A stretch of DNA of 64,000 nt from Aggregatilineales bacterium (GCA_044226855.1 JBGAGF010000013.1:95507-159506), one strand, 5' to 3'; counted from the first letter of the stretch, positions 2,768 through 56,500 are shown. Translations and numbers: made by a program. Notes: a model not told the origin generated them from the sequence alone.

Positions 2768-2839
2768 TCCGCAGTAGCTCAACGGCAGAGCAATCGGCTG
2801 TTAACCGATGGGTTCCTGGTTCGAATCCAGGCTGCGGAG
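2768..2839 (+). tRNA. tRNA-Asn (anticodon GTT)
   Basis: Manual fold. 7-bp acceptor stem TCCGCAG/CTGCGGA, D-arm GCTC..GAGC, anticodon stem ATCGG/CCGAT with loop CTGTTAA, T-arm TCCTGG-TTCGAAT-CCAGG, discriminator G. CCA not encoded. Confidence 0.9.
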
Positions 2840-2847
2840 CAAGTCGA

Positions 2848-2875
2848 ACGCCCTGCGCCATGCGGGGCGTTTTCG
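2848..2875 (+). terminator. putative intrinsic terminator after tRNA-Asn
   Basis: Hairpin ACGCCC...GGGCGT followed by TTTT. Confidence 0.5.
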
Positions 2876-2915
2876 ATTCTAAAGCCCATTATTGAAAAAG
2901 GATTTTCGAAGTCAT

Positions 2916-3638
2916 ATGGTTGTCGCTTCCAGCAGCCTCGAATTCTGGCAAAACCCCACCGGCGTTGACATTCTCCACGACCCCCTAAAATTCTTATACA
3001 TCACCGACGAAGCCGAGCACATGATGGTTTCATGGCTGGCACATCGCGTTTTCGAATACCAGCAGCGCAACAGTGGCACCGAGCGCCAGTTCACAAAAAT
3101 GATCATGATCACGATGGGTGCGCTATTACCCGGTGTCTACCTGCAAGATTACATTACCCACTGTGCCACGCCTGATATGCCCAACATCGAGTTCGGGACG
3201 TTCGGCGTTAAATGTTATCTGGGGCCGGGGCAGCCGCTCCAGTATCCGGAGATTGTCCAGCCGTTGTCGATTGATGTGCGCGGCCACACCGTCGGCATGA
3301 TCGAAGACCTCATCGATCTCGGTGGCACGGCTCGCTTTGTGCAGGATACCCTCACCTCACCGCAGTATGGTGCGCGTGAAGTAGTCATCATTGCGCCCTA
3401 TCGTAAGAGTGCTGCCGCCACCAACCAGATGGAAGCCATCACCTTCGGCTTGATCCCGCACGATACTTGGGTCATCACGCCCCGTGAACGCGTCGAAACC
3501 ATGATCAAGCGCGTTCCCTTCTGGGCGCAGCAGGGCGCGGATCGTGCCGCCTGCATCACCAACTTGCGCCGCATCGGCTACCCGCAATATTTGATTGATG
3601 ACTGGTTCGATACCGCTTGGATGCGCGTGGATGTCTAA
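2916..3638 (+). CDS. phosphoribosyltransferase-fold (type I PRTase-like) protein
   Basis: Contains a PRPP-binding-like motif VGMIEDLIDLGGTA (hydrophobic run, two acidic residues, then GGT). Substrate specificity unknown. ATG at 2916 chosen within ORF 2892..3638. Confidence 0.5.
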   Translation: MVVASSSLEFWQNPTGVDILHDPLKFLYITDEAEHMMVSWLAHRVFEYQQRNSGTERQFTKMIMITMGALLPGVYLQDYITHCATPDMPNIEFGTFGVKCYLGPGQPLQYPEIVQPLSIDVRGHTVGMIEDLIDLGGTARFVQDTLTSPQYGAREVVIIAPYRKSAAATNQMEAITFGLIPHDTWVITPRERVETMIKRVPFWAQQGADRAACITNLRRIGYPQYLIDDWFDTAWMRVDV

Positions 3639-3685
3639 AACATCATAATCAACAAAATAGAGGGGATAACCCCTCTTGAATGTTG

Positions 3686-4714
3686 TTAGGCTGCTGCTTC
3701 GACTAACCCCAGTTGTTGCAGCCAACCCAGACGGTTGTATTCTTTATAATCTTCAACGCCGATGCCGTCTTTATTGAAGCGCACGAACACATTGATGATG
3801 AACTTGATCGGTTTGCCACTGGCAGCAAGGGTCACGTCATCCTGTGAAATCGGCTGTTTGAACGTGCCGGTGTATACCAACCGGCCTGCCAGCCAATCGC
3901 CTTCAGCGACCGTGATTTCCATAGCCACATGTAAATCCGGCACCACCTGACGAAAGAGCTGGACTACCTTTTTGAAGGTGTCGCGGGTGAAGTTACCAAA
4001 CGGTTCGTGTGTCAGATAATCTTCAACCATGTATTTATCGATAGCCGTCAAGTCACCCTTGTTGAGCGAATCGTCGATCACCCCTGCGTAACCCTGTTTG
4101 TGGGCTTGTTCCATACCTGCCGATACAGGTTCGCCCAGTACAATCGGGCTAATTTTCCCTGTAACCAATGTATAGGCAATCAAATCCGGCAGCTTGGGCG
4201 CAGCATCCATTTGCAGCAGCATACTCAGCGGGTCAAAGGCGGTGAAGTCTTCGGCTATTTTGCCTTCAGCATCAAAGCGGTGCAGGATATTAAATGCGAT
4301 TTGGACAGCTTTATTGTTTGGTTCAATTGCTTGAGTGCCCAATATCCACTTGTCATTAAATGTTCCTTTAAAGATGACACGGCTGGCCGCCCACTCATCA
4401 TCCTTGTTGGCAATAATCACTTCCGGTGTAACGCGGAAATCTGGCATGGCCGAAACCCACGCCTTGATGAACCCTTTGAATCCGCTCAGGTCGAGGTCTT
4501 CACCAAAGCCGTGATTAACATAATCCGTACTGTAATGGGCATCCAGCAGATCAACATCGCCCTTGCCGATGGCCGTGTCATAAATACTTTGCAGCGTTTG
4601 TTTATGCTGAGCCGCTGCGGCATCGTCCTGTGCCAGACTGATCTCAAACACAAAACAGACCAAGATAACAACAGATAAAACTCGGCTCAGGACGGTTATC
4701 GTTGTGCGCCACAT
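3686..4714 (-). CDS. secreted protein with tandem SnoaL/NTF2-like (ester cyclase-like) domains
   Basis: N-terminal hydrophobic signal-like segment, then two internally similar domains of about 150 aa resembling SnoaL-like polyketide cyclase folds. Confidence 0.5.
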   Translation of the reverse strand: MWRTTITVLSRVLSVVILVCFVFEISLAQDDAAAAQHKQTLQSIYDTAIGKGDVDLLDAHYSTDYVNHGFGEDLDLSGFKGFIKAWVSAMPDFRVTPEVIIANKDDEWAASRVIFKGTFNDKWILGTQAIEPNNKAVQIAFNILHRFDAEGKIAEDFTAFDPLSMLLQMDAAPKLPDLIAYTLVTGKISPIVLGEPVSAGMEQAHKQGYAGVIDDSLNKGDLTAIDKYMVEDYLTHEPFGNFTRDTFKKVVQLFRQVVPDLHVAMEITVAEGDWLAGRLVYTGTFKQPISQDDVTLAASGKPIKFIINVFVRFNKDGIGVEDYKEYNRLGWLQQLGLVEAAA

Positions 4715-4829
4715 ATGTTTTTCCTAATCTAATTGATAGGGAGAGGATAGAAAACAGTATAATAGTGCTTGAGATTAAGGGCAATTTGGCCGCGTGACCG
4801 TGTGTCAGTCAGATGGAAAAGTTGATCGA

Positions 4830-5441
4830 ATGAAACGCAAGTGGTTCTTCAGCGCTTTAGGACTGCTTCTCATCGGTGGGATGTGTTGGATGCTGGTCGG
4901 CATCACTATCAACATTCCGCCCAAATCCCCGCTGCAAAAACTCAATGACGCCCGTGCCTTGTGGCAGGCGAAGGGCAGTCCGAATTATCAGATGGATATC
5001 GCCTTTGGCTCGTTTTCTTATATTGGTGGTTTTAGGCTAATCGTCCATGACAACAAAGTGACAGAAATTTCGGAATTTCCTCTGCTGTACCAAAACGTTA
5101 CTCCCACACCTTTAAGTGACTTGGAAGCGAAATCATTCCAAGCAACTTATTTTGCTCAGACGATTTCGCCTGATTTGAAGCAATATACAGTTGAAAGTTT
5201 ATTTGAAATTGCATCCTCAAAAGTGTCCAATGATGCGTCTCTAATTGCATTTTGCAGTGGTACGATTATGCCAACATTCCCCGATGTTCGCTTCAACTCG
5301 GAATATGGTTACATCGAATCTTATGACTTAGGAAATTGTCCCAAATGGGAAGTGGGTGGAGGGTTAATGTGCCCCATTATTTCAGACTGCAATATGGGTA
5401 TGCATGTTCGTCATTTCGAAATTTTGCCGCAGAGTGAGTGA
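4830..5441 (+). CDS. membrane-anchored hypothetical protein
   Basis: ORF 4794..5441. Internal Met MKRKWFF is followed by one TM helix, which suggests the true start. Confidence 0.45.
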   Translation: MKRKWFFSALGLLLIGGMCWMLVGITINIPPKSPLQKLNDARALWQAKGSPNYQMDIAFGSFSYIGGFRLIVHDNKVTEISEFPLLYQNVTPTPLSDLEAKSFQATYFAQTISPDLKQYTVESLFEIASSKVSNDASLIAFCSGTIMPTFPDVRFNSEYGYIESYDLGNCPKWEVGGGLMCPIISDCNMGMHVRHFEILPQSE

Positions 5442-5449
5442 TTTACAGC

Positions 5450-6243
5450 CTATCCCATCAGAACGGTGATCTGTTTGTAATAGATGCGGATGAACAGTGT
5501 ACCGAGTTGAATTAAGGCGTCGTTCTTGAGGGGAACCGGAACTTGAGCCTGTATGCGACGCCGGTCAACCATCGTGCCGTTAATCGAGTTCAAATCCATC
5601 AGGGTGAGTTTGCCGTTTTCCATCGAGAGCATGGCGTGCTGCCGTGAAACGCCGCATTCCTCGCCGTGAAAATTCTCCAGATTGATATCCATATTCATCC
5701 CGCGCCCGATAAACATCTTGCTGTTTTTGAGCTTAACCTTCAGCGTTTGCGGCAGATAGTCAGGGAAAATCAGCAGGAGTTCGTTGGCTTCCAGTGACGC
5801 CTCTTGCGTTTTAATGACGTCATCGCTGGCATTCATCAAGCTGACGATGGTGGTTTCTTGGGTAATCCGGCTGGAAAGTTTGGTCAGTGATGTAGCGTTC
5901 AAATCCGGCGTGGGCAGCGATTTGATCAGTAAACTCACCTGCTCGTCGTATTTCGCTTGGTCAGCAAAGTCAATCCGTTGCAGATGCCGGATCAGCAGCG
6001 GCAGCGGAGCAGGGCGGTATACAATCGGGATAATGAGCTTGTTCTTCGTATGAAATTCGCGCCATTCCACGCTGACGTTGTTGGAAGTCGAGGCCGTGGG
6101 TGACCAGACCAGCAGCAATACTGTCCTGCCGGAACACTGTGTAGATGGTCAACCCACACGTCAAATGCGTAGCGTTCCAAGCTGTGGCTCAGGTTGTTGA
6201 CGAACTCATCTTCAGCGGAAGAATGGCTAATGAAGACCAGCAT
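5450..6243 (-). pseudogene. TIR-FHA domain protein, disrupted (deletion plus frameshift between TIR beta-B and beta-C)
   Basis: ORF 5992..6243 encodes a TIR N-terminus MLVFISHSSAEDEF...FDVWVDH. Overlapping ORF 5450..6118 in another frame continues with TIR-like LLVWSPT...NNVSVEWREF...IIPIVYRP and ends with a canonical FHA domain (FIGRG...VSRQHA...NGTMV). The frames switch near 6118-6150. Confidence 0.6.
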
Positions 6244-6411
6244 TAATAAAACCTCTGACCGTGATCATGGTACGTCAAAAGTATAGCCATAAAAATATAA
6301 ACCAACCACTAATAGTGCTCAAGGAAGATCGACTTGAAAGCCGTTCATTTCTGGATTTTGATGGTGCCATCAATTATTCGTAACAAGGTTTACTTTGGGG
6401 TTGTCGGCAAA

Positions 6412-6800
6412 CCGTTTCCTAACCCTGCCGCAACCTCGTGCAGAAAATCCTCCCTCACAACGTTAGTGCCACCGGCTTGAAACAGTTACAAAATGTTCTT
6501 CCAAAATGTAACCCGCTACTTTCCTATATGTCGTATGCTCTTTGTAGGGAAAGATGGTTCTTGCCCCTGCAGCGCGCTAACGGGTTAGGCATCACGACTT
6601 TGTCCCACCGTATTTGTATTGGACTAAAGACTGGCTATTTGGCAAAGCTGGCGGCGGACACTCCCCTGCTACGTTTGCCAAAAAACCGGCGGATTCTCGG
6701 CTAAAGCACGTACAAAAGTCATCAAAATGGGCTAATTGCCGCCATCGCCGCCAAAAAATTTGCCAATTTCGCCACCGCCGTTGTCGATCACCTGCCCATT
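6412..6800 (+). repeat. dispersed non-coding repeat, copy A (31-nt conserved core at 6484..6514)
   Basis: Core AGTTACAAAATGTTCTTCCAAAATGTAACCC is identical to 42776..42806 and is the reverse complement (2 mismatches) of 24005..24035. Flanks are recognisably homologous to copies B and C. Confidence 0.7.
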
Positions 6801-21242: not shown

Positions 21243-22490
21243 TCACCGCCAGTTCTCAATGGTATCTTTTAACTTCTGCATGAATGTGTCACCTGTTGCG
21301 CCATCGGCTACACGATGATCGAATGTCAGCGTCACATAGCAGCAGGGGCGGATCGCGATCATGTCGTTAATGACCTTGACGCGCTTTTCCATTACGCCGA
21401 CACCGAGGATTCCGGACTGTGGCTGGTTGATAATCGGCGTTGCGAATAGACTGCCGCTCACACCGTGATTGGTAATCGTGAATGTGCCGCCTTGCACCTC
21501 ATCACTTTTGAGTTGTTTGCCTCGCGCCCGTGCTGCTAGATCATTTACGGCTCGCGCCATGCCTATCAGGTTCAAATCGCCTGCGTTCTTAATGACCGGC
21601 ACAATCAAACCATCATCAATCGCCACGGCAATGCCGAGGTTCACTGTGCTGTGCAGGAAAATACCTTCGTCCGTCCACTGCGCATTTAGATAACGTTGGC
21701 TTTGCAGTGCTGCAACGGTGGCCACCGCCAGATAAGCGGTCAGCGTCAAATTGACTCCTTGCTTAGCAAAGGATTCTTTGTTCGCCTCTCGATGAGCCAT
21801 CACGGCGGACATATCGAACTCGAATACCGTCGTGACGTGAGGTGCAGTTTGCAGCTTGCTCCGCACCATATGCTCAGCGATGGTTCGCCGCATCGCGCTC
21901 AACGGCATCAATTCTCCCGCGCTCTGTGGCACGCTGGCTGGCGGACGGGGTTGCACAGGGATTACTTCAGCCATTTTCAGTTGTTTGTCTTCTGCTTGCA
22001 CGGCCTTGCTTGTAGGGAGGGCGTTAGAGGGTGGGGGCAGTGCCAGATAGGCTTCAACATCTTTCTTTGTGATACGACCATCACGTCCTGTGCCGGTAAT
22101 CTGTGATAAATCGAGATGATGTTCAGCCACCATTCGCGCAACGACCGGCGACACATAACCGGTATATTCCACCACATGTCCATTACTTACGGACGCTTGT
22201 TGTAGGGATATATGGTTATCGGTCCGCGTTTCGATACGGGCTTCTGTTTCCTTGGCCTCGCCGATCACCGCTAGGCACACGCCTGCCGTCACCAATTGTC
22301 CGACCGGAGTCATAATTTTCAGCACCACGCCGCTAATAGGCGCAGGAATTTCAGTGTCAATTTTGTCGCCGCTGACTTCGAGCAGCGGATCAAACTGTTC
22401 GACGTGCTCGCCTTCCCGCTTTAGCCACTTGCTAACAGTGCCTTCACTAACGCTGTCACCAAGCTGCGGCATAATCACTTCAGTTGGCAT
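21243..22490 (-). CDS. 2-oxoacid dehydrogenase complex E2 component (dihydrolipoamide acyltransferase)
   Basis: N-terminal lipoyl domain (EVIMPQLGDSVSEGTV...SGDK), linker, and catalytic domain ending in DHRVADGA. Confidence 0.85.
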   Translation of the reverse strand: MPTEVIMPQLGDSVSEGTVSKWLKREGEHVEQFDPLLEVSGDKIDTEIPAPISGVVLKIMTPVGQLVTAGVCLAVIGEAKETEARIETRTDNHISLQQASVSNGHVVEYTGYVSPVVARMVAEHHLDLSQITGTGRDGRITKKDVEAYLALPPPSNALPTSKAVQAEDKQLKMAEVIPVQPRPPASVPQSAGELMPLSAMRRTIAEHMVRSKLQTAPHVTTVFEFDMSAVMAHREANKESFAKQGVNLTLTAYLAVATVAALQSQRYLNAQWTDEGIFLHSTVNLGIAVAIDDGLIVPVIKNAGDLNLIGMARAVNDLAARARGKQLKSDEVQGGTFTITNHGVSGSLFATPIINQPQSGILGVGVMEKRVKVINDMIAIRPCCYVTLTFDHRVADGATGDTFMQKLKDTIENWR

Positions 22491-22663
22491 GTATCCTCAC
22501 CATAACATTATTTTTAATGAATGCTTGCTTCTACAACCTCTTTTTACAACATTTTTGGATACCTTGCACGGTCTATTAAGCATTGTCTCAGCGTAGCTAT
22601 CCCGTCCGGTACAAGATGAGTAAATCATTTAAGCTAGAGTCACAGACTACGAAAGGAAATGAA

Positions 22664-23849: not shown

Positions 23850-24090
23850 CATAAAGCAAAATTGGCAGCAATTTCGGCAAATCTGGCATGCCAATTGTGG
23901 AAATTTGCAGCGATTGATGGTTGTTACAATGCGCTTTGGAGAATCGACCGCCGGCAAACACCTAAGAACATCATAGCTTATTTGAGGAAAGTGTGGGTTA
24001 CCTTTTGGAAGACCATTTTGTAACTCATTTGCAGCTTGGACACAAACTTAACAGCCGAGGTTGTTAGGAACAGGGTATATGGACGGTTTC
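23850..24090 (-). repeat. dispersed non-coding repeat, copy C (core at 24005..24035, minus orientation)
   Basis: Reverse complement matches the 31-nt core with 2 mismatches. Flanks share ACTTTCCT, CCTAAC..AACCTCG and TAACAACC.TCAATCG.TGCAAAT blocks with copies A and B. Outer limits are uncertain. Confidence 0.6.
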
Positions 24091-24239
24091 AAAACGGTTT
24101 GCCGACAAACCAGAATTAAACTTATTGTCGATAATCGTATAGAAGGTCGAACAAAATGAGCCGAATATCCCTCTTGTCAGTTCATGGAATGTCCTTCACA
24201 CTACAAAGAGAGATTCACGTCATGGGATTGAGGTAAGTC

Positions 24240-42696: not shown

Positions 42697-43500
42697 GTTA
42701 ACCCTTTACCAACCATCCATCAACCTGAAGAAGCGGCTGTCTCGCTCATTTACGTTAGAGCCAAACCCGCAAACGAGTTACAAAATGTTCTTCCAAAATG
42801 TAACCCCTTTGCGTATCAGTTCCCTTACAATAGACGATAGGATTGGCTGTAGGGATTTGCCGCTGGCAAATCCTCACACTGGCAAACCCCTGCTGAAACC
42901 AAATCCAACCGCATCTTAACAACCGTCAATCGTTGCAAATGTGATAAAAAAGACCGTTTCTCAACTGCAATATTTTCAACATTTGCCACACAGCTAGCGT
43001 AAATGTCACCACAAAACGTGTGTTGTTTCCGCCGCTTGTGCTGCTTTTGCCGCATATTCCGCATTAACTACGGTTCACTGCCCTTGATGCACTCAAGCAA
43101 TAGGCTGAGCTACTGACTGATTGACAACGACTATGCCGACATTTTCGACATCGAAAACACTTGGAATTTGTGGATCTTGCGGTTTTTGCAGTTTTTCGCA
43201 TCTCAAATGGTGAATGGTCGGGGGAATAGCCAATCACAAAAAGTAAAATATTCTGAATCTGAAGAATCCGACGAATTTTCTGAATCAAAAAGGAGTGAAG
43301 ATGAACCATGCTCCGCCGCCATCGCCGCCGCCAAGAAAGTTGTTGCCGCCACCGCCATCTCTTGTATTCGGCTAACGACTGAAGACTTATCATATGGCAA
43401 TCTTGGCGGCGGACACTCCAACAAGCTTTTGCCGCATTTCTAGCCGAACGTCCCGCCGAATTGCCGATAAATTTGCCAAAAACAGGGGGTGAAATTGTCA
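42697..43500 (+). repeat. dispersed non-coding repeat, copy B (core at 42776..42806), extended version
   Basis: Identical 31-nt core. Shares ACGTTAG.GCCA, TGTAGGGA, TAACAACCGTCAATCGTTGCAAAT, TGGCGGCGGACACTCC and GCCGCCATCGCCGCC blocks with copies A and C. Starts about 9 bp after the IS5 right end. Confidence 0.65.
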
Positions 43501-50102: not shown

Positions 50103-52160
50103 ATGAGGGATATTATGCTGACACCATTTGAACAATTTCTGTTTCTCCTGCTGGCGGTGCTGGCCGTCGGCGCGACATACAGCGGCTTCCGAGAAATGTA
50201 CCTCATCATCAATCGCGGAGAAGGCCAACTGTATTTGGATCATCTTCCCCAGCGTTTATGGACCGCTCTAAAAATCTATTTGGGACAGCAAACTACGCTC
50301 AAGACCCGACGCGTGAGCAGTTTGTTTCACTTGGGGATTGTATGGGGCTTTACTTATTACTTCCTCGTCAATGGTTTAGATACTTTTAAAGGATTTATTC
50401 CTAACTTTTTGGATTGGTTGAAAAATTTCGGGATCATTTATGACCTTTACCGGCTGGTTGGGGATGTGTTGAGCATCGCGGTACTGGTCGGCGTGGTGTA
50501 CTTCATCCTGCGGCGGTATGTGCTCCCCAACAAACGGGAGTTGGACTATCACGATAATGTGCTTTTGCATCCTAAAGTGAAGGCAGGCGCAGTCAGGACT
50601 GACTCGCTGATTGTGGCAATATTCATCCTGATCCATGTGGGTTCACGCTTCTTAGGTGAGTCGGTTTATGTGGCTCACAATGGGGCTGATTTGTTCATGC
50701 CTTTCGCGACGTTGATCTCACCCATCTGGGGGGGGATGAACGGTGACACATTGACCATGATGGAGCATGTCTTCTGGTGGTTGGCACTCGGCGGTATCCT
50801 CGTCTTTACGCCCTATTTCGCTTACTCGAAGCATGCTCACTTGTTCATGGCTCCCCTCAACTTCTTGACCAAGCCAAAGCGAACCTCGCTCGGTGAAATG
50901 GACAAGCTTGATCTGGAAAATCCCGATATTGAGCAGTTCGGCGTGAATAAGCTGGAAGATTTGCCCAAGACCAATATCTTTGACGGGTTCGCCTGTATCA
51001 TGTGCAATCGCTGTCAGGATGTTTGCCCGGCTTATACAACGGGCAAAGAACTTTCGCCGGCGGCCTACGAAGTCAACAAACGTTATTTCATGCGCGACCA
51101 CATGACCGATTTGGCCGGTGGATCGGAGTCAGAGTTCTCGCTGGTGGGGATGGCGATCAGCGAATCGGCAGTGTGGGCATGTACATCCTGCGGTGCGTGT
51201 ATCGATATTTGTCCGGTGGGCAATGAGCCGATGCTGGACATCCTGAACATCCGGCGTGACGCGGTGCTGATGCAGTCTGAGTTCCCGGCTGAACTGCAAG
51301 GCGCGTTCAAAGGTATGGAACGTCAGGGCAATCCGTGGCAGGCTCCGCGTGAAGATCGCTTCAAGTGGGCTAAGGGGCTCGACATTCCTGTTCCGACGGT
51401 AGACGAAAACCCGAACTTCGACATCCTGTATTGGACAGGCTGCGCGGTGAATTATGATCCGCGCGCACAGTTGACGGCGAGGGCACTGGTCAAGGTATTG
51501 AACGCGGCAGGTGTGAACTTCGCAGTGCTCGGTGAGATGGAAAACTGCACGGGTGATGTGGCACGGCGGGCAGGCAAAGAAGACCTGTATTATGAACTGG
51601 CGACGGGCAACGTCGAAACCCTGAACGAGGTCAACCCGAAGCGGATTGTGGTCACCTGCCCGCACTGTTACCACAACATCGGGAAGGAATATCACCAGTT
51701 TGGGGGGAACTATGAAGTGGTTCACCATACTGAACTGATCGAAGAACTGATCGGTGCGGGGAAGGTCCCGACAAGCACCAAGAAGATGAGCAACGTCACG
51801 TTCCATGATCCATGCTATCTGGGGCGGCATAATGACGTGGTCGAAGCGCCCCGCACGGCGCTGGGGTTGGTGAGCGAGAATCTGATTGAGATGCCACGCA
51901 GCAAGAAGAAATCCTTCTGCTGTGGGGCGGGCGGCGCGCAGTTCTGGAAGGAAGAGGAACACGGCACCAAAGCGGTCAACGTCGAACGCTACGAGGAAGC
52001 CAAGTCAACTGGAGCGGACGTGCTGGCGGTGGGGTGTCCGTTCTGTGCCCAGATGTTTGAAACGGCCAAGGCGAACGATGCTGATAGCAAGCTGGTGATC
52101 AAGGACGTGGCCGAGCTGATCGCCGAGAACCTGACGATGCAGGCGATCGTTCACGACTAA
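50103..52160 (+). CDS. membrane-bound Fe-S oxidoreductase, HdrD/GlpC/DsrK-like, fused to an N-terminal integral membrane domain
   Basis: About 270 aa of TM helices. Two 4Fe-4S ferredoxin motifs (CIMCNRCQDVCP, CTSCGACIDICP). Two CCG-type Cys-rich domains (CPHCYH...HDPCYLG, CCGAGG...GCPFC). Confidence 0.7.
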   Translation: MRDIMLTPFEQFLFLLLAVLAVGATYSGFREMYLIINRGEGQLYLDHLPQRLWTALKIYLGQQTTLKTRRVSSLFHLGIVWGFTYYFLVNGLDTFKGFIPNFLDWLKNFGIIYDLYRLVGDVLSIAVLVGVVYFILRRYVLPNKRELDYHDNVLLHPKVKAGAVRTDSLIVAIFILIHVGSRFLGESVYVAHNGADLFMPFATLISPIWGGMNGDTLTMMEHVFWWLALGGILVFTPYFAYSKHAHLFMAPLNFLTKPKRTSLGEMDKLDLENPDIEQFGVNKLEDLPKTNIFDGFACIMCNRCQDVCPAYTTGKELSPAAYEVNKRYFMRDHMTDLAGGSESEFSLVGMAISESAVWACTSCGACIDICPVGNEPMLDILNIRRDAVLMQSEFPAELQGAFKGMERQGNPWQAPREDRFKWAKGLDIPVPTVDENPNFDILYWTGCAVNYDPRAQLTARALVKVLNAAGVNFAVLGEMENCTGDVARRAGKEDLYYELATGNVETLNEVNPKRIVVTCPHCYHNIGKEYHQFGGNYEVVHHTELIEELIGAGKVPTSTKKMSNVTFHDPCYLGRHNDVVEAPRTALGLVSENLIEMPRSKKKSFCCGAGGAQFWKEEEHGTKAVNVERYEEAKSTGADVLAVGCPFCAQMFETAKANDADSKLVIKDVAELIAENLTMQAIVHD

Positions 52161-52214
52161 TCCAATTCAGCTAACCGCCAAGGCGCCAAGTTAATACAAA
52201 GAAAACGTCGTTCG

Positions 52215-52384
52215 AGAGGGCGGCGTTTTTGATTCAGCGGATTATGCGCAATATGCAAAATTTGCACATTTATCCGCCGAAATGACTGGCGGGAAGCCGC
52301 CGAGAAGCCGCTGAATTGACACTTTCACGCCGCGGGAAGTTCGGCTGGCGCCGCTGAATTGGCGCAAATGCCGCGGATGACCCC
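52215..52384 (+). repeat. partial copy (3' module only) of the dispersed repeat, truncated by the IS3 element
   Basis: CAAAATTTGCACATTTATCCGCC and GAATTGGCGCAAATGCCGCGG resemble the 3' blocks of copies A and B. No 31-nt core. Confidence 0.35.
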
Positions 52385-52489
52385 TGTATGTCCGCCGCTG
52401 CACAGTTGGCAGTGCTGTGGACTTGCCCCGTTTAAGTGGAGAGTGTGAAATTGCACAGGTACACTTAAATAAGGAGCAAGGAGAAAAGC

Positions 52490-52777
52490 ATGAGCAGACA
52501 CCGTAAGCAGCAAACCGAGGCCTTCAAAGCGGAAGCAGTAGCATTAGTGAAGGCGAGTGGAAAAGGGGTGCCGGAGATTGCGGAAGAGTTGGGGATTAAT
52601 GCGCGGACGCTGTACACATGGGTAGCGAGTGACAAGTCCAGTTCAGCCGTGACAGATGAAGGAAACGGACGGGATTTGGAAGCAGAAAACCGACGGCTGC
52701 GGCGGGAACTGGAGATCATGCGGCAGGAGCGGGACATCCTAAAAAAAGCTATGAGCGTGTTCGCGAAGGGGTCATGA
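52490..52777 (+). CDS. IS3 family transposase OrfA (HTH)
   Basis: EAFKAEAVALV...GVPEIAEELGINARTLYTWV and a leucine-zipper-like end. A7G slippery site at 52741..52748. Confidence 0.8.
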   Translation: MSRHRKQQTEAFKAEAVALVKASGKGVPEIAEELGINARTLYTWVASDKSSSAVTDEGNGRDLEAENRRLRRELEIMRQERDILKKAMSVFAKGS

Positions 52778-52818
52778 TGCGCTACCAGTTCATCGCTGAA
52801 CACGCCTAGGAGTATCCA

Positions 52819-53640
52819 GTGCAGCGACAATGTCAGGTGTTGGAAGTGGCTGCAAGCGGCTACTATGCCTGGTGCAAGCGCCAACCGAGTGGGCGACAGC
52901 AAGCGGATGCGGCCTTGGTGGCGGAAATCCAGAGAATTTACCAGCAAAACCGGGGAACGTATGGCAGTCCACGGGTGCATGCCGAACTACGAAAACGGGG
53001 ACACCGCTGCAGTCGCAAACGGGTCGCCCGCCTGATGCGCCAAAGCCATCTGCGCTCGGTGCGTCAAGCCAGGCGACGGCAGCTCACGACCGATTCTCGC
53101 CATCCTTATCCCGTTGCCGCCAATGTCCTCAACCGAGACTTTCAAGCTCAACGTCCCAACCAGAAGTGGGTAGCGGATATCACCTTCATCGCCACGCAGG
53201 CGGGATGGTTGTATCTGGCCGTGGTCTTGGATCTCTTCTCACGCCGCGTTGTCGGCTGGGCGATGAGTGCTCGTTGTGATGCCACTCTGGTTCAGCATGC
53301 CCTCCAGATGGCCCTCTCCCAGCGCCAACCTACTGGCGCTTTACTACACCACTCCGATCGCGGCAGTCAGTACGCCGCTCTCGCCTACCAAGCCCTGCTG
53401 GCTCAGCACCACATCATCGTCAGCATGAGCCGCACCGCCAACTGTTACGACAACGCCGTCATCGAGAGCTTCTTTCGCACCCTCAAAGCTGAGTGCATTG
53501 ACCTACATCTCTTTCACTCACATGCTTATGCCCGAACCGTTATCTTTGAGTACTTGGAGGTCTATTACAACCGTCAACGCCTACATTCCACCCTTGGCTA
53601 TTGCACACCTGCTGCTTTTGAGGCAGCCTACCTTTTATGA
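52819..53640 (+). CDS. IS3 family transposase OrfB (DDE integrase core); an in-frame TAG lies between the frameshift site and the conserved domain
   Basis: ...YGSPRVHAEL...DRGSQYAA...YDNAVIESFFRTLKAE integrase core. In the -1 frame after the slippery site, TAG at 52807..52809 interrupts the conserved FIAEHA-x-EYPV segment. Confidence 0.7.
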   Translation: MQRQCQVLEVAASGYYAWCKRQPSGRQQADAALVAEIQRIYQQNRGTYGSPRVHAELRKRGHRCSRKRVARLMRQSHLRSVRQARRRQLTTDSRHPYPVAANVLNRDFQAQRPNQKWVADITFIATQAGWLYLAVVLDLFSRRVVGWAMSARCDATLVQHALQMALSQRQPTGALLHHSDRGSQYAALAYQALLAQHHIIVSMSRTANCYDNAVIESFFRTLKAECIDLHLFHSHAYARTVIFEYLEVYYNRQRLHSTLGYCTPAAFEAAYLL

Positions 53641-53780
53641 ATCTCTTGTCTCTCCACAATATCAGGTCAAGTCCAGCTGTCGCAGCGGATGTGAGGGAGT
53701 GAACCGCCGAAAATGCAAAAGCAAAAACAGTTGAACCGCAAAGACGCAGAGAAAGAGGAGAAAAAGATAAAATCATCATA

Positions 53781-54697
53781 GGAATATGGTAGTGGTTGCA
53801 AAGTAAGTGATGGTGGATAAAGATCTGCCACATGATCGAAGAGACTACCAAATACTCGTGTCGATCATGCGGCAGTGAGCCTATTATACGCAACGGGCAC
53901 AATAAATGCGGGAGTCCGCAGTACAAGTGCAAAGCGTGTGGTGCCTGCCGCGTGTTGACACCGAAAATCAAATATACGCAGGAACAGAAAGTCACCATTT
54001 TGCGTGCTTACCGGGAACGGATCAGTTTACGCGGCTTACAGCGCGTGTTCGGTGTATGGCGCACTACCGTCTTGCGCTGGTTAAAGGCGTGGGTGGCATC
54101 CCTACCATCATTGCCCGAAACATTGCTTCCGGTTCAAGCGACCGATGTGCTGGAACTGGATGAACTGGTGAGTTTTGTGTCCGAGAAGTTCTTCAAACGC
54201 TGGTTGTGGCTGGCCATGTGTCGTCGAACGCGCCAGATTGTGGCTTATGCCATCGATGATCGCTCCGAAACCACGGCGCAGAAGCTCTGGGAAATGCTTC
54301 CCGACAGCTATCGAAGTTGTCCCATGTACACAGATGAGTACGATGTTTATCCACGTATTATCCCACTTGAGCAGCATCGGGCGGCCCCCAAAGAGGCACA
54401 TCAGACCAATCATCAAGAGCGTTGGAACAATACGCTCCGTCAGTGGGTCGGGCGATACACTCGCAAGTCCTTATCTTTTTCCAAGGAGGATCTGTACCAT
54501 TCTCTCGTCACTCATTGGTTCATCCTCGAATACAATCTTCGTATTCGATCATCACTTACCTTGTGACCACTACCAGGAATATGGTGGTGGTCATTTGGTA
54601 AGTGATGATTGAACCCTCACCCCTAGCCCCTCTCCCTCAAGGCGAGGGGAACTAAACAAGTTATCACTTACTATGCAACCACTACTAGGAATATTGT
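53781..54697 (+). mobile_element. IS1 family insertion sequence (single fused InsAB-type ORF)
   Basis: Inverted repeats with core TAGTGGTTGCA(A/T)AGTAAGTGAT at 53781..53815 and, reverse complement, 54661..54697. An extra direct partial copy of the left end lies at about 54573..54608. Confidence 0.6.
53832..54566 (+). CDS. IS1 family transposase (InsA zinc-finger/HTH fused to InsB DDE domain)
   Basis: N-terminal CRSCGS...CKACGA zinc finger. C-terminal ...YTDEYDVY...ERWNNTLRQWVGRYTRKSLSFSKE matches the IS1 InsB signature. Confidence 0.8.
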   Translation: MIEETTKYSCRSCGSEPIIRNGHNKCGSPQYKCKACGACRVLTPKIKYTQEQKVTILRAYRERISLRGLQRVFGVWRTTVLRWLKAWVASLPSLPETLLPVQATDVLELDELVSFVSEKFFKRWLWLAMCRRTRQIVAYAIDDRSETTAQKLWEMLPDSYRSCPMYTDEYDVYPRIIPLEQHRAAPKEAHQTNHQERWNNTLRQWVGRYTRKSLSFSKEDLYHSLVTHWFILEYNLRIRSSLTL

Positions 54698-54809: not shown

Positions 54810-56260
54810 ATGCCTAAGGTTTTTATTTCCTACCGTCGTGCAGACAGCCAAACCATTACAGATCGTATTTATGATCGATTAGCGGCGGTATTTGGTGAAG
54901 AAAATGTATTTCAAGACGTGGATAGTATTCGCGCGGGTGCTGATTTCCGTGTGGTGCTGAAGGACGCTGTCGAGTTTTGTGATGTTGTACTGGTAATAAT
55001 CGGTTCGAAATGGGCTAGAGTCACGGATGACCTAGGACAGAAGCGACTGATGAATCCGGCTGATTTCGTCCGGATCGAGTTAGAAAGCGCACTCAACAGT
55101 CAAAAGGTTGTTATTCCTGCACTCATAGAAGGGGCGATGATGCCCGATGCGGATGATTTACCGCCATCCCTGCATGAATTGTTATTTCGGAATGCCGTCA
55201 AAATCCGCCATAATCCTGATTTCAAACGCGATATACAGCGGCTAATCGAACAGATTCAAGCTATTGATGCAGACAAACAAACAAGCAGCACACCATATGT
55301 CAGCAACGCCAGTTGGCGACGTTGGCGCAAACCCGCTATTGGTCTTGTCATCACTGTTCTTGTATCAGTAGGTATTGTTGCTGCAATACTGTCACGACAA
55401 CAAACACCCAATAGAGTCACGCCGACCGCTGCACCAACGAATATACCTCTAGCAGCAGTATCGGCAGCTACACTGCAAGCAATTGTACAACCAACGCAAA
55501 TACCAACTGTCATGATGCCTATTGTGGTTTCCCGCAACGTCGACTGGAAACCCGTTGAGCGTGATGTTAACGGGGTGATGATGGTGCAAGTGCCAGAAGG
55601 GTGTTTTGATATGGGCAATGATCCACAAGCTTTTGATGGTCCGATACAAGGAGTAGGCAATGGTGGTCACATTTGTTTTATCAGTGCTTTTTGGATAGAC
55701 AAAACAGAAGTGACTAACGCGCAGTTTACACAGTTTGGTGGCAAGCAGCACAGCCAAGCAATTGGACGAATCCCAACCACCCACGCGAAACGATTACGTG
55801 GTTTGAAGCACGCGACTTCTGCGCTGCGCGCGGCGGGCGTTTACCTACGGAGGCGGAGTGGGAATATTCAGCTCGCGGACCAGATAATCTGGCATATCCG
55901 TGGGGCAATTCATTTGTAGGCGATAACGTGGTCTATTCTGAGAACTCAAATTATCAAACAGCGGATGTTGGCAGCAAACCTAAAGGGGCATCGTGGGTAG
56001 GAGCGCTCGATATGAGCGGTAATGTGTGGGAATGGGTTTCAACACTCTACTGGCGGTATCCGTATCCTATACCAGACAGCAATGAAGAAGCTATACTGTG
56101 GATAAATTATAACGATATTGCTGATTATCGTGCCCTGCGCGGCGACTCATGGTATCCTACATATTTAGAGTACTTGCGGTCAGCCTCCCGTTACAGGGAC
56201 TTGCAGGATTATTCGTATAATGATCTTGGCTTTCGGTGTGTAGTTTCCCTCTCACAATAA
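54810..56260 (+). pseudogene. TIR - transmembrane - FGE-sulfatase (SUMF1/EgtB-like) domain protein, disrupted by internal deletion plus frameshift
   Basis: ORF 54810..55919 has an N-terminal TIR_2-like domain (MPKVFISYRRADS...RIELESAL...VVIPAL), one TM helix, and the start of an FGE domain (GCFDMG...FWIDKTEVTNAQFTQF). The rest of the FGE domain (HPRETITWFEARDFCAARGGRLPTEAEWEYSARG...DMSGNVWEWV...LRGDSW...GFRCV) is in another frame (55718..56260). Confidence 0.6.
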
Positions 56261-56500
56261 CGACAACAAACTGAATTGATTATGCCGCAACTCGGTGACA
56301 GCGTGAGTGAAGGCACTCTCAGCAACTGGCTTTAGAAGGCGGATCAATCCATTATCAGATAGACTTGGTTGATGGATAAGTATCGTCTGGAAGGTTGTCT
56401 ATGCTGCCGCAATAGATTGCTATTGATTTGCTCGATACACTGGACTGTGTAATTCGCTTGGACTTGAAAGAAAAGCCAATTGCTATATCCTAAGAAGCAT

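Follow-up and report, generated by a model that had tools for sequence, protein, structure and literature searches.

Bacterial TIR domains are best known as NAD+ hydrolases or signal generators, for which AbTir, ThsB, SPARTA and the SARM1-type enzymes are the obvious points of reference, and FHA domains, which bind phosphothreonine, are best known here from FHA-gated regulators. Among the latter we would single out DgcB of Bdellovibrio, an FHA-GGDEF protein, and GarA/OdhI of Actinobacteria, which carry an ETTS phospho-acceptor motif in a disordered N-terminus and bind it with their own FHA domain. In the searched text of a survey of conflict systems in multicellular bacteria (Kaur, Burroughs, Iyer and Aravind 2020; PMC7159879), TIR, FHA and FGS are listed separately as effector or sensor modules, and that same text holds no description of a TIR-FHA fusion. 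Our literature searches likewise found no description of a TIR-FHA protein, and those for the run accessions gave nothing specific; the family is already annotated in public databases, where it is without experimental characterisation. The copy that concerns us here lies in a stretch of 64,000 nucleotides from an Aggregatilineales bacterium, the whole of which we call the window, and on balance we favour the view that it is a recent null allele, made by a 43-bp deletion, of a single-gene TIR-helix-FHA protein of about 278 aa in Anaerolineae, whose intact form would be a kinase-gated TIR effector. The gene is laid out as follows.

5450..6243, minus strand: the disrupted TIR-FHA gene as a whole, of which 794 bp are present (the intact allele has 837 bp and encodes 278 aa)
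6118..6243, minus strand: native N-terminal part, codons 1-42 (MLVFISHS...VPAGQY), with betaA, alphaA, betaB and the BB loop; TIR_2 positions 1-36; 100% identical to contigs L089-L091
6116..6118, minus strand: deletion junction, placed by DNA alignments A2 and A3 and by blastn
5992..6117, minus strand: the part of the 83-aa ORF that is read out of frame, some 41 non-native codons ending at the stop, from the ORF translation
5927..6115, minus strand: rest of the TIR domain in a second frame, betaC to alphaE (LLVWSPTASTSNNVSVEWREF...IIPIVYRP...); TIR_2 positions 54-121 at ORF residues 1-64
5711..5926, minus strand: linker, one long helix (residues 131-164) in the model of an intact orthologue (AF2 model m93b7271aa729)
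5501..5710, minus strand: FHA domain with GR, S-R-Q-H and N-G-T, from Pfam FHA, Foldseek and invariant columns (A5)

An earlier note on this DNA had described two ORFs in different frames, one with the start of a TIR domain and the other with the rest of it and an FHA domain, and both ORF calling and Pfam find them just so. ORF 5992-6243 (-), of 83 aa, has an ATG start, opens MLVFISHSSAEDEFVNNLSHSLERYAFDVWVDHLHSVPAGQY and then runs into unrelated sequence, while ORF 5450-6118 (-), of 222 aa and in another frame, opens (M)LLVWSPTASTSNNVSVEWREFH and has the FHA domain at its end. Against Pfam TIR_2 (PF13676, cut-off 28 bits) the 83-aa ORF scores 27.6 bits at positions 1-36 of 122 and the 222-aa ORF 26.6 bits at positions 54-121, each just below the cut-off, as a split domain should score; when the fragments are joined in silico, they reach 50.9 bits over positions 1-121 of 122. 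The FHA domain of the 222-aa ORF matches PF00498 (cut-off 20.7 bits) at positions 3-67 of 67 with 53.9 bits, and the TIR remainder at 5927..6115 includes a Ser and a Glu that are invariant in the family (S68 and E74 in the numbering of the intact protein; alignments A5 and A6).

What has been lost can be stated with some precision. In the protein alignment the window protein lacks about 15 residues relative to 12 intact orthologues, all 12 of which read PAGQ-YWDE(Y/F)VDxKLEDSKVM-LLVWSP at the point where the window reads PAGQ(Y) followed directly by LLVWSP. At the DNA level, alignments and blastn against four orthologous genes and three strain-identical contigs give a gap of exactly 43 bp, which bears out the proposal that the gene is broken inside its TIR domain by an internal deletion that is not a multiple of three. 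The missing 43 bp are TGGGACGAATTCGTCGATAGGAAGCTCGAAGACTCCAAGGTGA, that is, codons 43-56 plus one base of codon 57, and the frame changes because of that one extra base. Comparison with intact orthologues, the check that the earlier note had proposed, thus places the missing segment at codons 43-56, over alphaB and the start of betaC. Its count of about nine codons remaining between WVDH and LLVWSP was right; its expectation of 25-30 was somewhat high, since the intact proteins have 24. In the AF2 model of the orthologue P0001 the lost residues, W43-V56, correspond to helix alphaB (H43-53) and the start of betaC (E56-61), and the deletion is accordingly predicted by the model to take out part of the pocket-forming face of the TIR domain. 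Translation of the window copy from its ATG yields 42 native and about 41 junk residues, with the FHA part in another frame. The reading frame is therefore interrupted and alphaB lost, in a segment present in 20 of 20 relatives (12 close, 8 distant). A TG at both ends of the gap leaves the breakpoint ambiguous by 2 nt, and this 2-nt microhomology, the only one there, is no strong mechanistic signature.

Several other ways of accounting for the break were tried and set aside. Programmed frameshifting or recoding is ruled out: the intact sequence is just 43 bp longer, there is no slippery site and the break is not conserved. An insertion in the other genomes, in place of a deletion here, is likewise ruled out by the fact that all relatives, down to 33% identity, encode the segment as alphaB. 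A hairpin-mediated deletion is unsupported, the intact region folding no better than its shuffles (z = +1.06).

The intact protein itself is well represented. A protein search with the joined sequence returned intact homologues of 275-278 aa, all of them TIR_2 plus FHA, from Anaerolineaceae and Aggregatilineales MAGs and from metagenomes, at identities of 51-88% in the best local BLASTP matches and 54-93% in the MAFFT alignment A1; the lengths of intact orthologues in Anaerolineae and Aggregatilineales MAGs range from 273 to 281 aa. The AF2 model of P0001 (m93b7271aa729; pLDDT 88, pTM 0.79) has its elements in the order of a flavodoxin-like TIR domain (E2-6, H9-24, E28-30, H43-53, E56-61, H69-80, E84-89), and in this model a 34-residue helix (131-164) joins TIR and FHA. 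Foldseek pairs the P0001 TIR with the TIR of Hydra TRR-2 (TM 0.82) and its FHA with Rv0020c and GarA (TM 0.82-0.85; the range is 0.75-0.85 once OdhI and DgcB are included), in keeping with the 11-strand beta-sandwich of FHA domains, and sequence matches of the TIR in the PDB include SPARTA TIR-APAZ, AbTIR, PdTIR and SARM1. Among the invariant columns are S68, E74, W75, S214, R215, H217, N236, G237 and T238 (A5 and A6). E74, which lies within H69-80 (alphaC) and is invariant in 18 sequences down to 35% identity, may correspond to the catalytic Glu of TIR NAD+ hydrolases, to judge by the spacing from betaC in AbTir and in the consensus of TIR_2; HMMER, however, places a gap here and misaligns the stretch against SPARTA. 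The residues by which FHA domains bind phosphothreonine are present (G194-R195, S214-R-Q-H217 and N236-G-T238), and in the distant half of the family the Arg of the GR motif is replaced by Trp. The linker of the close subfamily has a nearly invariant TQETT motif, which distant members lack and which lies inside the predicted long helix; for these two reasons we do not rely on it for mechanism.

The mechanism that we infer for the intact protein runs as follows. A Ser/Thr kinase would phosphorylate a threonine of a partner protein or of another protomer; the FHA domain would dock on this phosphothreonine, and the docking would cluster or release the TIR domains and so control their self-association. 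The TIR domain, with its invariant Ser and with Glu at the putative catalytic position, might then cleave NAD+ or make a nucleotide signal. Such a kinase-gated TIR effector would follow a logic comparable, by analogy, to that of the FHA-gated diguanylate cyclase DgcB. In the window copy this function would be lost.

Full-length relatives occur in about 13 species-level genomes, all of them Chloroflexota (Anaerolineae, Aggregatilineales, Phototrophicaceae). When the family profile was searched exhaustively, at least 40 clusters (at 50% identity) matched it once from end to end, their proteins being 269-312 aa long, and many proteins of 1000-2300 aa with three to seven TIR-like stretches came up besides. 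Among orthologue pairs with finite dS, the only ones that enter these figures, dN/dS is 0.03-0.15, alike in the TIR half and in the linker plus FHA half, and we read this as a sign that the orthologues are under strong purifying selection. With the full-length architecture of so many clusters and the synteny kept across species, it speaks for a gene that is functional elsewhere. Tandem duplicates exist on two contigs, at 10001-11881 of L005 (equal to L012) and at 2456-4231 of L018; the paralogues on L005 share about 76-85% identity with the query family, and their mutual dN/dS is 0.06. A 930-aa WD40-repeat protein encoded near a TIR-FHA gene (L015, 1177-3969, minus strand) clusters by BLAST with the family and presumably, to judge from that clustering, shares its TIR or its FHA module.

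In layout the TIR-FHA gene is monocistronic, with a divergent neighbour upstream and a convergent one downstream. In close relatives the synteny is kept across species and is of a housekeeping type (peptidase M42, two GNATs, TMEM175, a response regulator and SBP_bac_8), distant members adjoin an ABC transporter and a peptidyl-tRNA hydrolase (Pth) instead, and there is no homology between the genes that recur downstream in the two subclades (fam7 and fam11). Beside TIR-FHA, in the window and the related loci, we see no conserved kinase, phosphatase or other partner. A defence-island context with conserved partners is ruled out as well: neighbours vary by subclade, and the PADLOC matches are at the level of the TIR domain only. 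The neighbourhood has seen some local rearrangement. A 215-aa membrane-anchored protein (4794-5441, a weak DUF6174 match) lies downstream and convergent here and in L089, and its homologue lies upstream and divergent in L002 (9207-9815) and L005 (9193-9813). A SnoaL-domain gene (3686-4714) is present in the window, L001, L010 and L011 and absent from L002 and L005.

On the other side of the gene lies a conserved intergenic element of about 55-150 nt, which occurs in at least three copies in the window (6373-6514, minus strand; 23968-24123, plus strand; and 42750-42806) and has the core GGGTTACATTTTGGAAGAACATTTTGTAAC...AAACGGTTTGCCGACAAAC...GTAAAC.TTGTTACGAATAAT. L002, L005, L010 and L011 have it at the syntenic position, upstream of TMEM175, with about 77% conservation. 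Two to three small hairpins are predicted in it, with little covariation, and an Rfam search of the upstream copy gave a chance-level match only and no family. The Logan contigs L089-L091 all break at the edge of this element (about 6508).

Is the deletion real? It is here that the other samples come in. The 90%-identity cluster of P0001 includes P0015 (278 aa) and P0016 (222 aa). P0015 consists of both window fragments at 100% identity plus the missing residues, and because both fragments are identical to parts of an intact protein, the split TIR-FHA gene is not a chance pattern; P0016 is the window's own truncated ORF, from the NCBI genome with the 249,312-bp contig. P0015 is encoded on three Logan contigs, L089 (SRR28480383), L090 (SRR28480388) and L091 (SRR14092368), all of which carry the extra 43 bp. 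On either side of the gap, L090 and L091 match the window at 100% identity; L089 differs from the window by two mismatches and one gap, all far from the deletion site. The earlier note had reckoned with the discovery of a single uninterrupted ORF, and half of that has come about: three independent assemblies of other runs, with flanks 100% identical around the gene, show such an ORF, while the deposited assembly keeps the deletion, which is therefore private to it. Apart from the deletion there is no difference between the window allele and the intact allele over about 1.2 kb, and since no further differences have accumulated, the event, provided that it is biological, is extremely recent in the strain that the MAG represents. 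Two possibilities follow: a loss-of-function allele that arose very recently in this strain, or an error peculiar to the deposited MAG.

Contigs from SRR14092382, SRR14092383 and SRR14092369 are 100% identical to the window over 2811-5761 and end before the deletion site. In exact-product look-ups, neither the 83-aa nor the 222-aa product is encoded on any Logan contig on record, and the product of the TMEM175 neighbour is not on record either. When the deletion junction and the intact string were searched in JGI metagenome contigs, neither was present, from which it follows that this collection is without the strain and uninformative on the lesion.

The strongest rival to a genuine null allele is an artefact of assembly or consensus, in which the organism would carry an intact gene and the gap would stem from mis-polishing, from a chimeric or erroneous long read or from collapse onto a rare variant. 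We regard this as a serious possibility, on which we would nevertheless not wager. Three run-level assemblies from two run series (SRR28480383 and SRR28480388; SRR14092368) have the intact ORF, the truncated products are on no independent contig on record and the deletion allele is found only in the deposited NCBI assembly (as P0016). In addition, the source contig spans two IS elements within its 249 kb, which hints at a long-read or hybrid assembly with local consensus errors. Set against this, the loss of 43 bp from sequence that is neither repetitive nor homopolymeric is atypical of sequencing error, the rest of the window has no excess of frameshifts and its only other frameshift is independently confirmed. 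Moreover, a bona fide IS1 insertion sets the assembly apart from other samples and implies that it represents a distinct clone. Indeed, because the window clone differs from SRR28480383 by a genuine structural variant (the IS1 insertion), a genuine 43-bp deletion is plausible as well, which is not to say proven.

Systematic sequencing error, which the earlier note had also raised, finds no support. In 14.6 kb that are syntenic with L002, L005, L010 and L011, the 13 neighbouring genes have the same length as their orthologues and only TIR-FHA is short. Pfam examination of 20 further ORFs, including every suspicious pair of adjacent or overlapping ORFs on the same strand, found no second split gene, each of the 20 having either a complete, distinct Pfam domain or no match. 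The frameshift in the second TIR gene, finally, recurs in an independent contig. This leaves two frameshifted ORFs in the window, out of about 64, and these are the two TIR genes, which are also the only two TIR_2 genes detected. We list the second of them with the IS element beside it and the only RNA gene detected in the window.

54810-56260, plus strand: second TIR gene, with TIR_2, a transmembrane segment and an FGE-sulfatase domain (C-type-lectin fold)
53788-54685: IS1-family element of 898 bp with transposase ORF 53832-54566, flanked by 9-bp target duplications at 53779-53787 and 54686-54694
2768-2840, plus strand: tRNA-Asn (GTT)

The second TIR gene had been thought to be disrupted in the same way as the first, which was mistaken as to both type and place. 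Its TIR is intact (TIR_2 positions 1-121), and what breaks the gene is a -1 frameshift of a single base around 55742-55746, within the C-terminal FGE-sulfatase domain. Repaired in silico, the protein can be aligned over its full length with intact homologues (451-559 aa) and nothing is missing; the TIR-FGE-sulfatase family of Chloroflexota is very large, with 3389 matches at E <= 1e-20. An independent Logan contig, L092 (SRR28480383), encodes the identical truncated product of 369 aa, and so the frameshift is real and shared between clones. A diversity-generating mechanism (DGR) acting on the FGE-sulfatase domain of this gene was considered and ruled out, there being neither a template repeat nor a reverse transcriptase in the window.

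The IS1-family element has inverted repeats of about 23 bp, and the 9 bp duplicated at its target are TAGGAATAT. L092 still has the site without the insertion, which is consequently recent and polymorphic. At 52810-53640 there is the OrfB of an IS3-family transposase (rve, HTH_21), and upstream of it lie 650 bp poor in ORFs, probably its OrfA region (the region as a whole being 52160-53640); together with IS1 it makes a small IS cluster beside the second TIR gene. Also nearby is one copy of a 63-bp inverted repeat pair of 89% identity: the copy at 56269-56331 lies just past the stop of the second TIR gene, the one at 22423-22485 overlaps the 5' end of ORF 21243-22496 (-), and the pair may be a shared terminator or a small repeat element.

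Taken together, the two TIR genes invite a grander reading, in which TIR-FHA would be an undescribed kinase-gated TIR NADase, or a suicide or signalling switch, of filamentous Anaerolineae, its TIR domains assembling once the FHA docks on phosphothreonine, and the window would have caught one clone in the course of purging or deregulating its TIR effectors, with a null TIR-FHA, a TIR-FGS protein deprived of its sensor and a fresh IS1. We consider this a long shot. Slightly more doubtful still, in our view, is directed counter-selection against TIR effectors, by which the cost of TIR activity, in autoimmunity or NAD+ depletion for instance, would have led to the inactivation of both genes. It does have in its favour the coincidence that, among about 64 ORFs, frameshifts were found in two genes only and TIR_2 was detected in these same two and no others, and the fresh IS1 lies 124 bp upstream of the second one. 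The sample, however, is two genes, and the second cannot carry the argument that the earlier note drew from it, since its TIR survives: it keeps both TIR and transmembrane segment and loses only the sensor-like FGE-sulfatase, which would if anything deregulate the TIR. The strong purifying selection on TIR-FHA orthologues and the persistence of an intact TIR-FHA allele in the same population also speak against counter-selection. Least probable of all, and in our opinion very unlikely, is a functional truncated allele, in which the predicted 222-aa ORF, started from the junction TTG, would serve as a TIR-less FHA decoy, a dominant negative or a phosphothreonine adaptor, for although the junction makes ...GGCAGGACAGTA-TTG with an SD-like AGGA 5 nt upstream of the TTG start, public annotation treats the 222-aa ORF as a protein (P0016) and FHA and linker are untouched, the TTG start is an accident of the deletion inside an overlapping upstream ORF, a half-TIR without betaA, alphaA, betaB and alphaB is unlikely to fold, and no orthologue has such a form, the full-length relatives being of 269-312 aa with both domains.

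For annotation, our preferred reading of a recent null allele means that 5450-6243 should be treated as one disrupted gene (or be corrected, should the artefact prove true), in place of the 222-aa protein that stands in the public record. The lesion as such is an ordinary event, whether null allele or consensus error, and the only part worth follow-up, which we find modestly interesting, is the TIR-FHA family. The TIR-helix-FHA architecture would make a compact test case for TIR activity controlled by phosphorylation, and the intact allele P0015 on L089-L091 is there to be used.

How, then, does all this compare with what is known? In its lesion the window gene resembles an ordinary strain-level pseudogene or MAG consensus error, namely an out-of-frame internal deletion with an intact, otherwise identical allele elsewhere, and the only departure from this is that the affected family is uncharacterised. 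With the conflict systems of Kaur, Burroughs, Iyer and Aravind (2020; PMC7159879), so far as the searched text describes them, the locus shares its host lineage, Chloroflexota, and its TIR, FHA and FGS modules; it differs in having no STAND/NTPase, vWA-MoxR, EAD or DGR components near either TIR gene.

Among the TIR systems, the likeness is to the bacterial NAD+ hydrolases and signal generators (AbTir, ThsB, SPARTA, SARM1-type). The joined TIR fills the whole TIR_2 profile, and alignment suggests that TIR-FHA has the invariant Ser...Glu pair at the start of alphaC, although N70 stands where the usual S-x-W...E motif has its Trp. Unlike the known TIR systems, TIR-FHA is without ThsA, pAgo/APAZ, SAVED, STING or NLR partners or fusions and stands alone among housekeeping genes, and the copy in the window is broken. 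For Thoeris, there is no ThsA (SIR2/Macro-SLOG) neighbour in the window or in 14 related loci, where TMEM175, GNATs, SnoaL, an ABC transporter and Pth are found, and the PADLOC match to ThsB is at the level of the TIR domain only (E = 3e-5). For SPARTA, the PADLOC match covers the first ~130 of 430-443 model positions, the C-terminus is FHA and there is no pAgo nearby.

The FHA-gated regulators are the other natural comparison. In contrast to DgcB and GarA/OdhI, no kinase is linked to the TIR-FHA gene, and where GarA/OdhI have their disordered ETTS phospho-acceptor, the TQETT of TIR-FHA lies in a predicted helix and is limited to the close subfamily. The output of TIR-FHA is a TIR, not a GGDEF, and it is placed N-terminal to the FHA domain, which again differs from DgcB. 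The FHA domain itself superposes on those of DgcB, GarA/OdhI (Actinobacteria) and Rv0020c, and members of the close subfamily have GR/SxxH/NG. The model predicts that a helix connects this FHA domain to an output enzyme domain, which is also the arrangement in DgcB.
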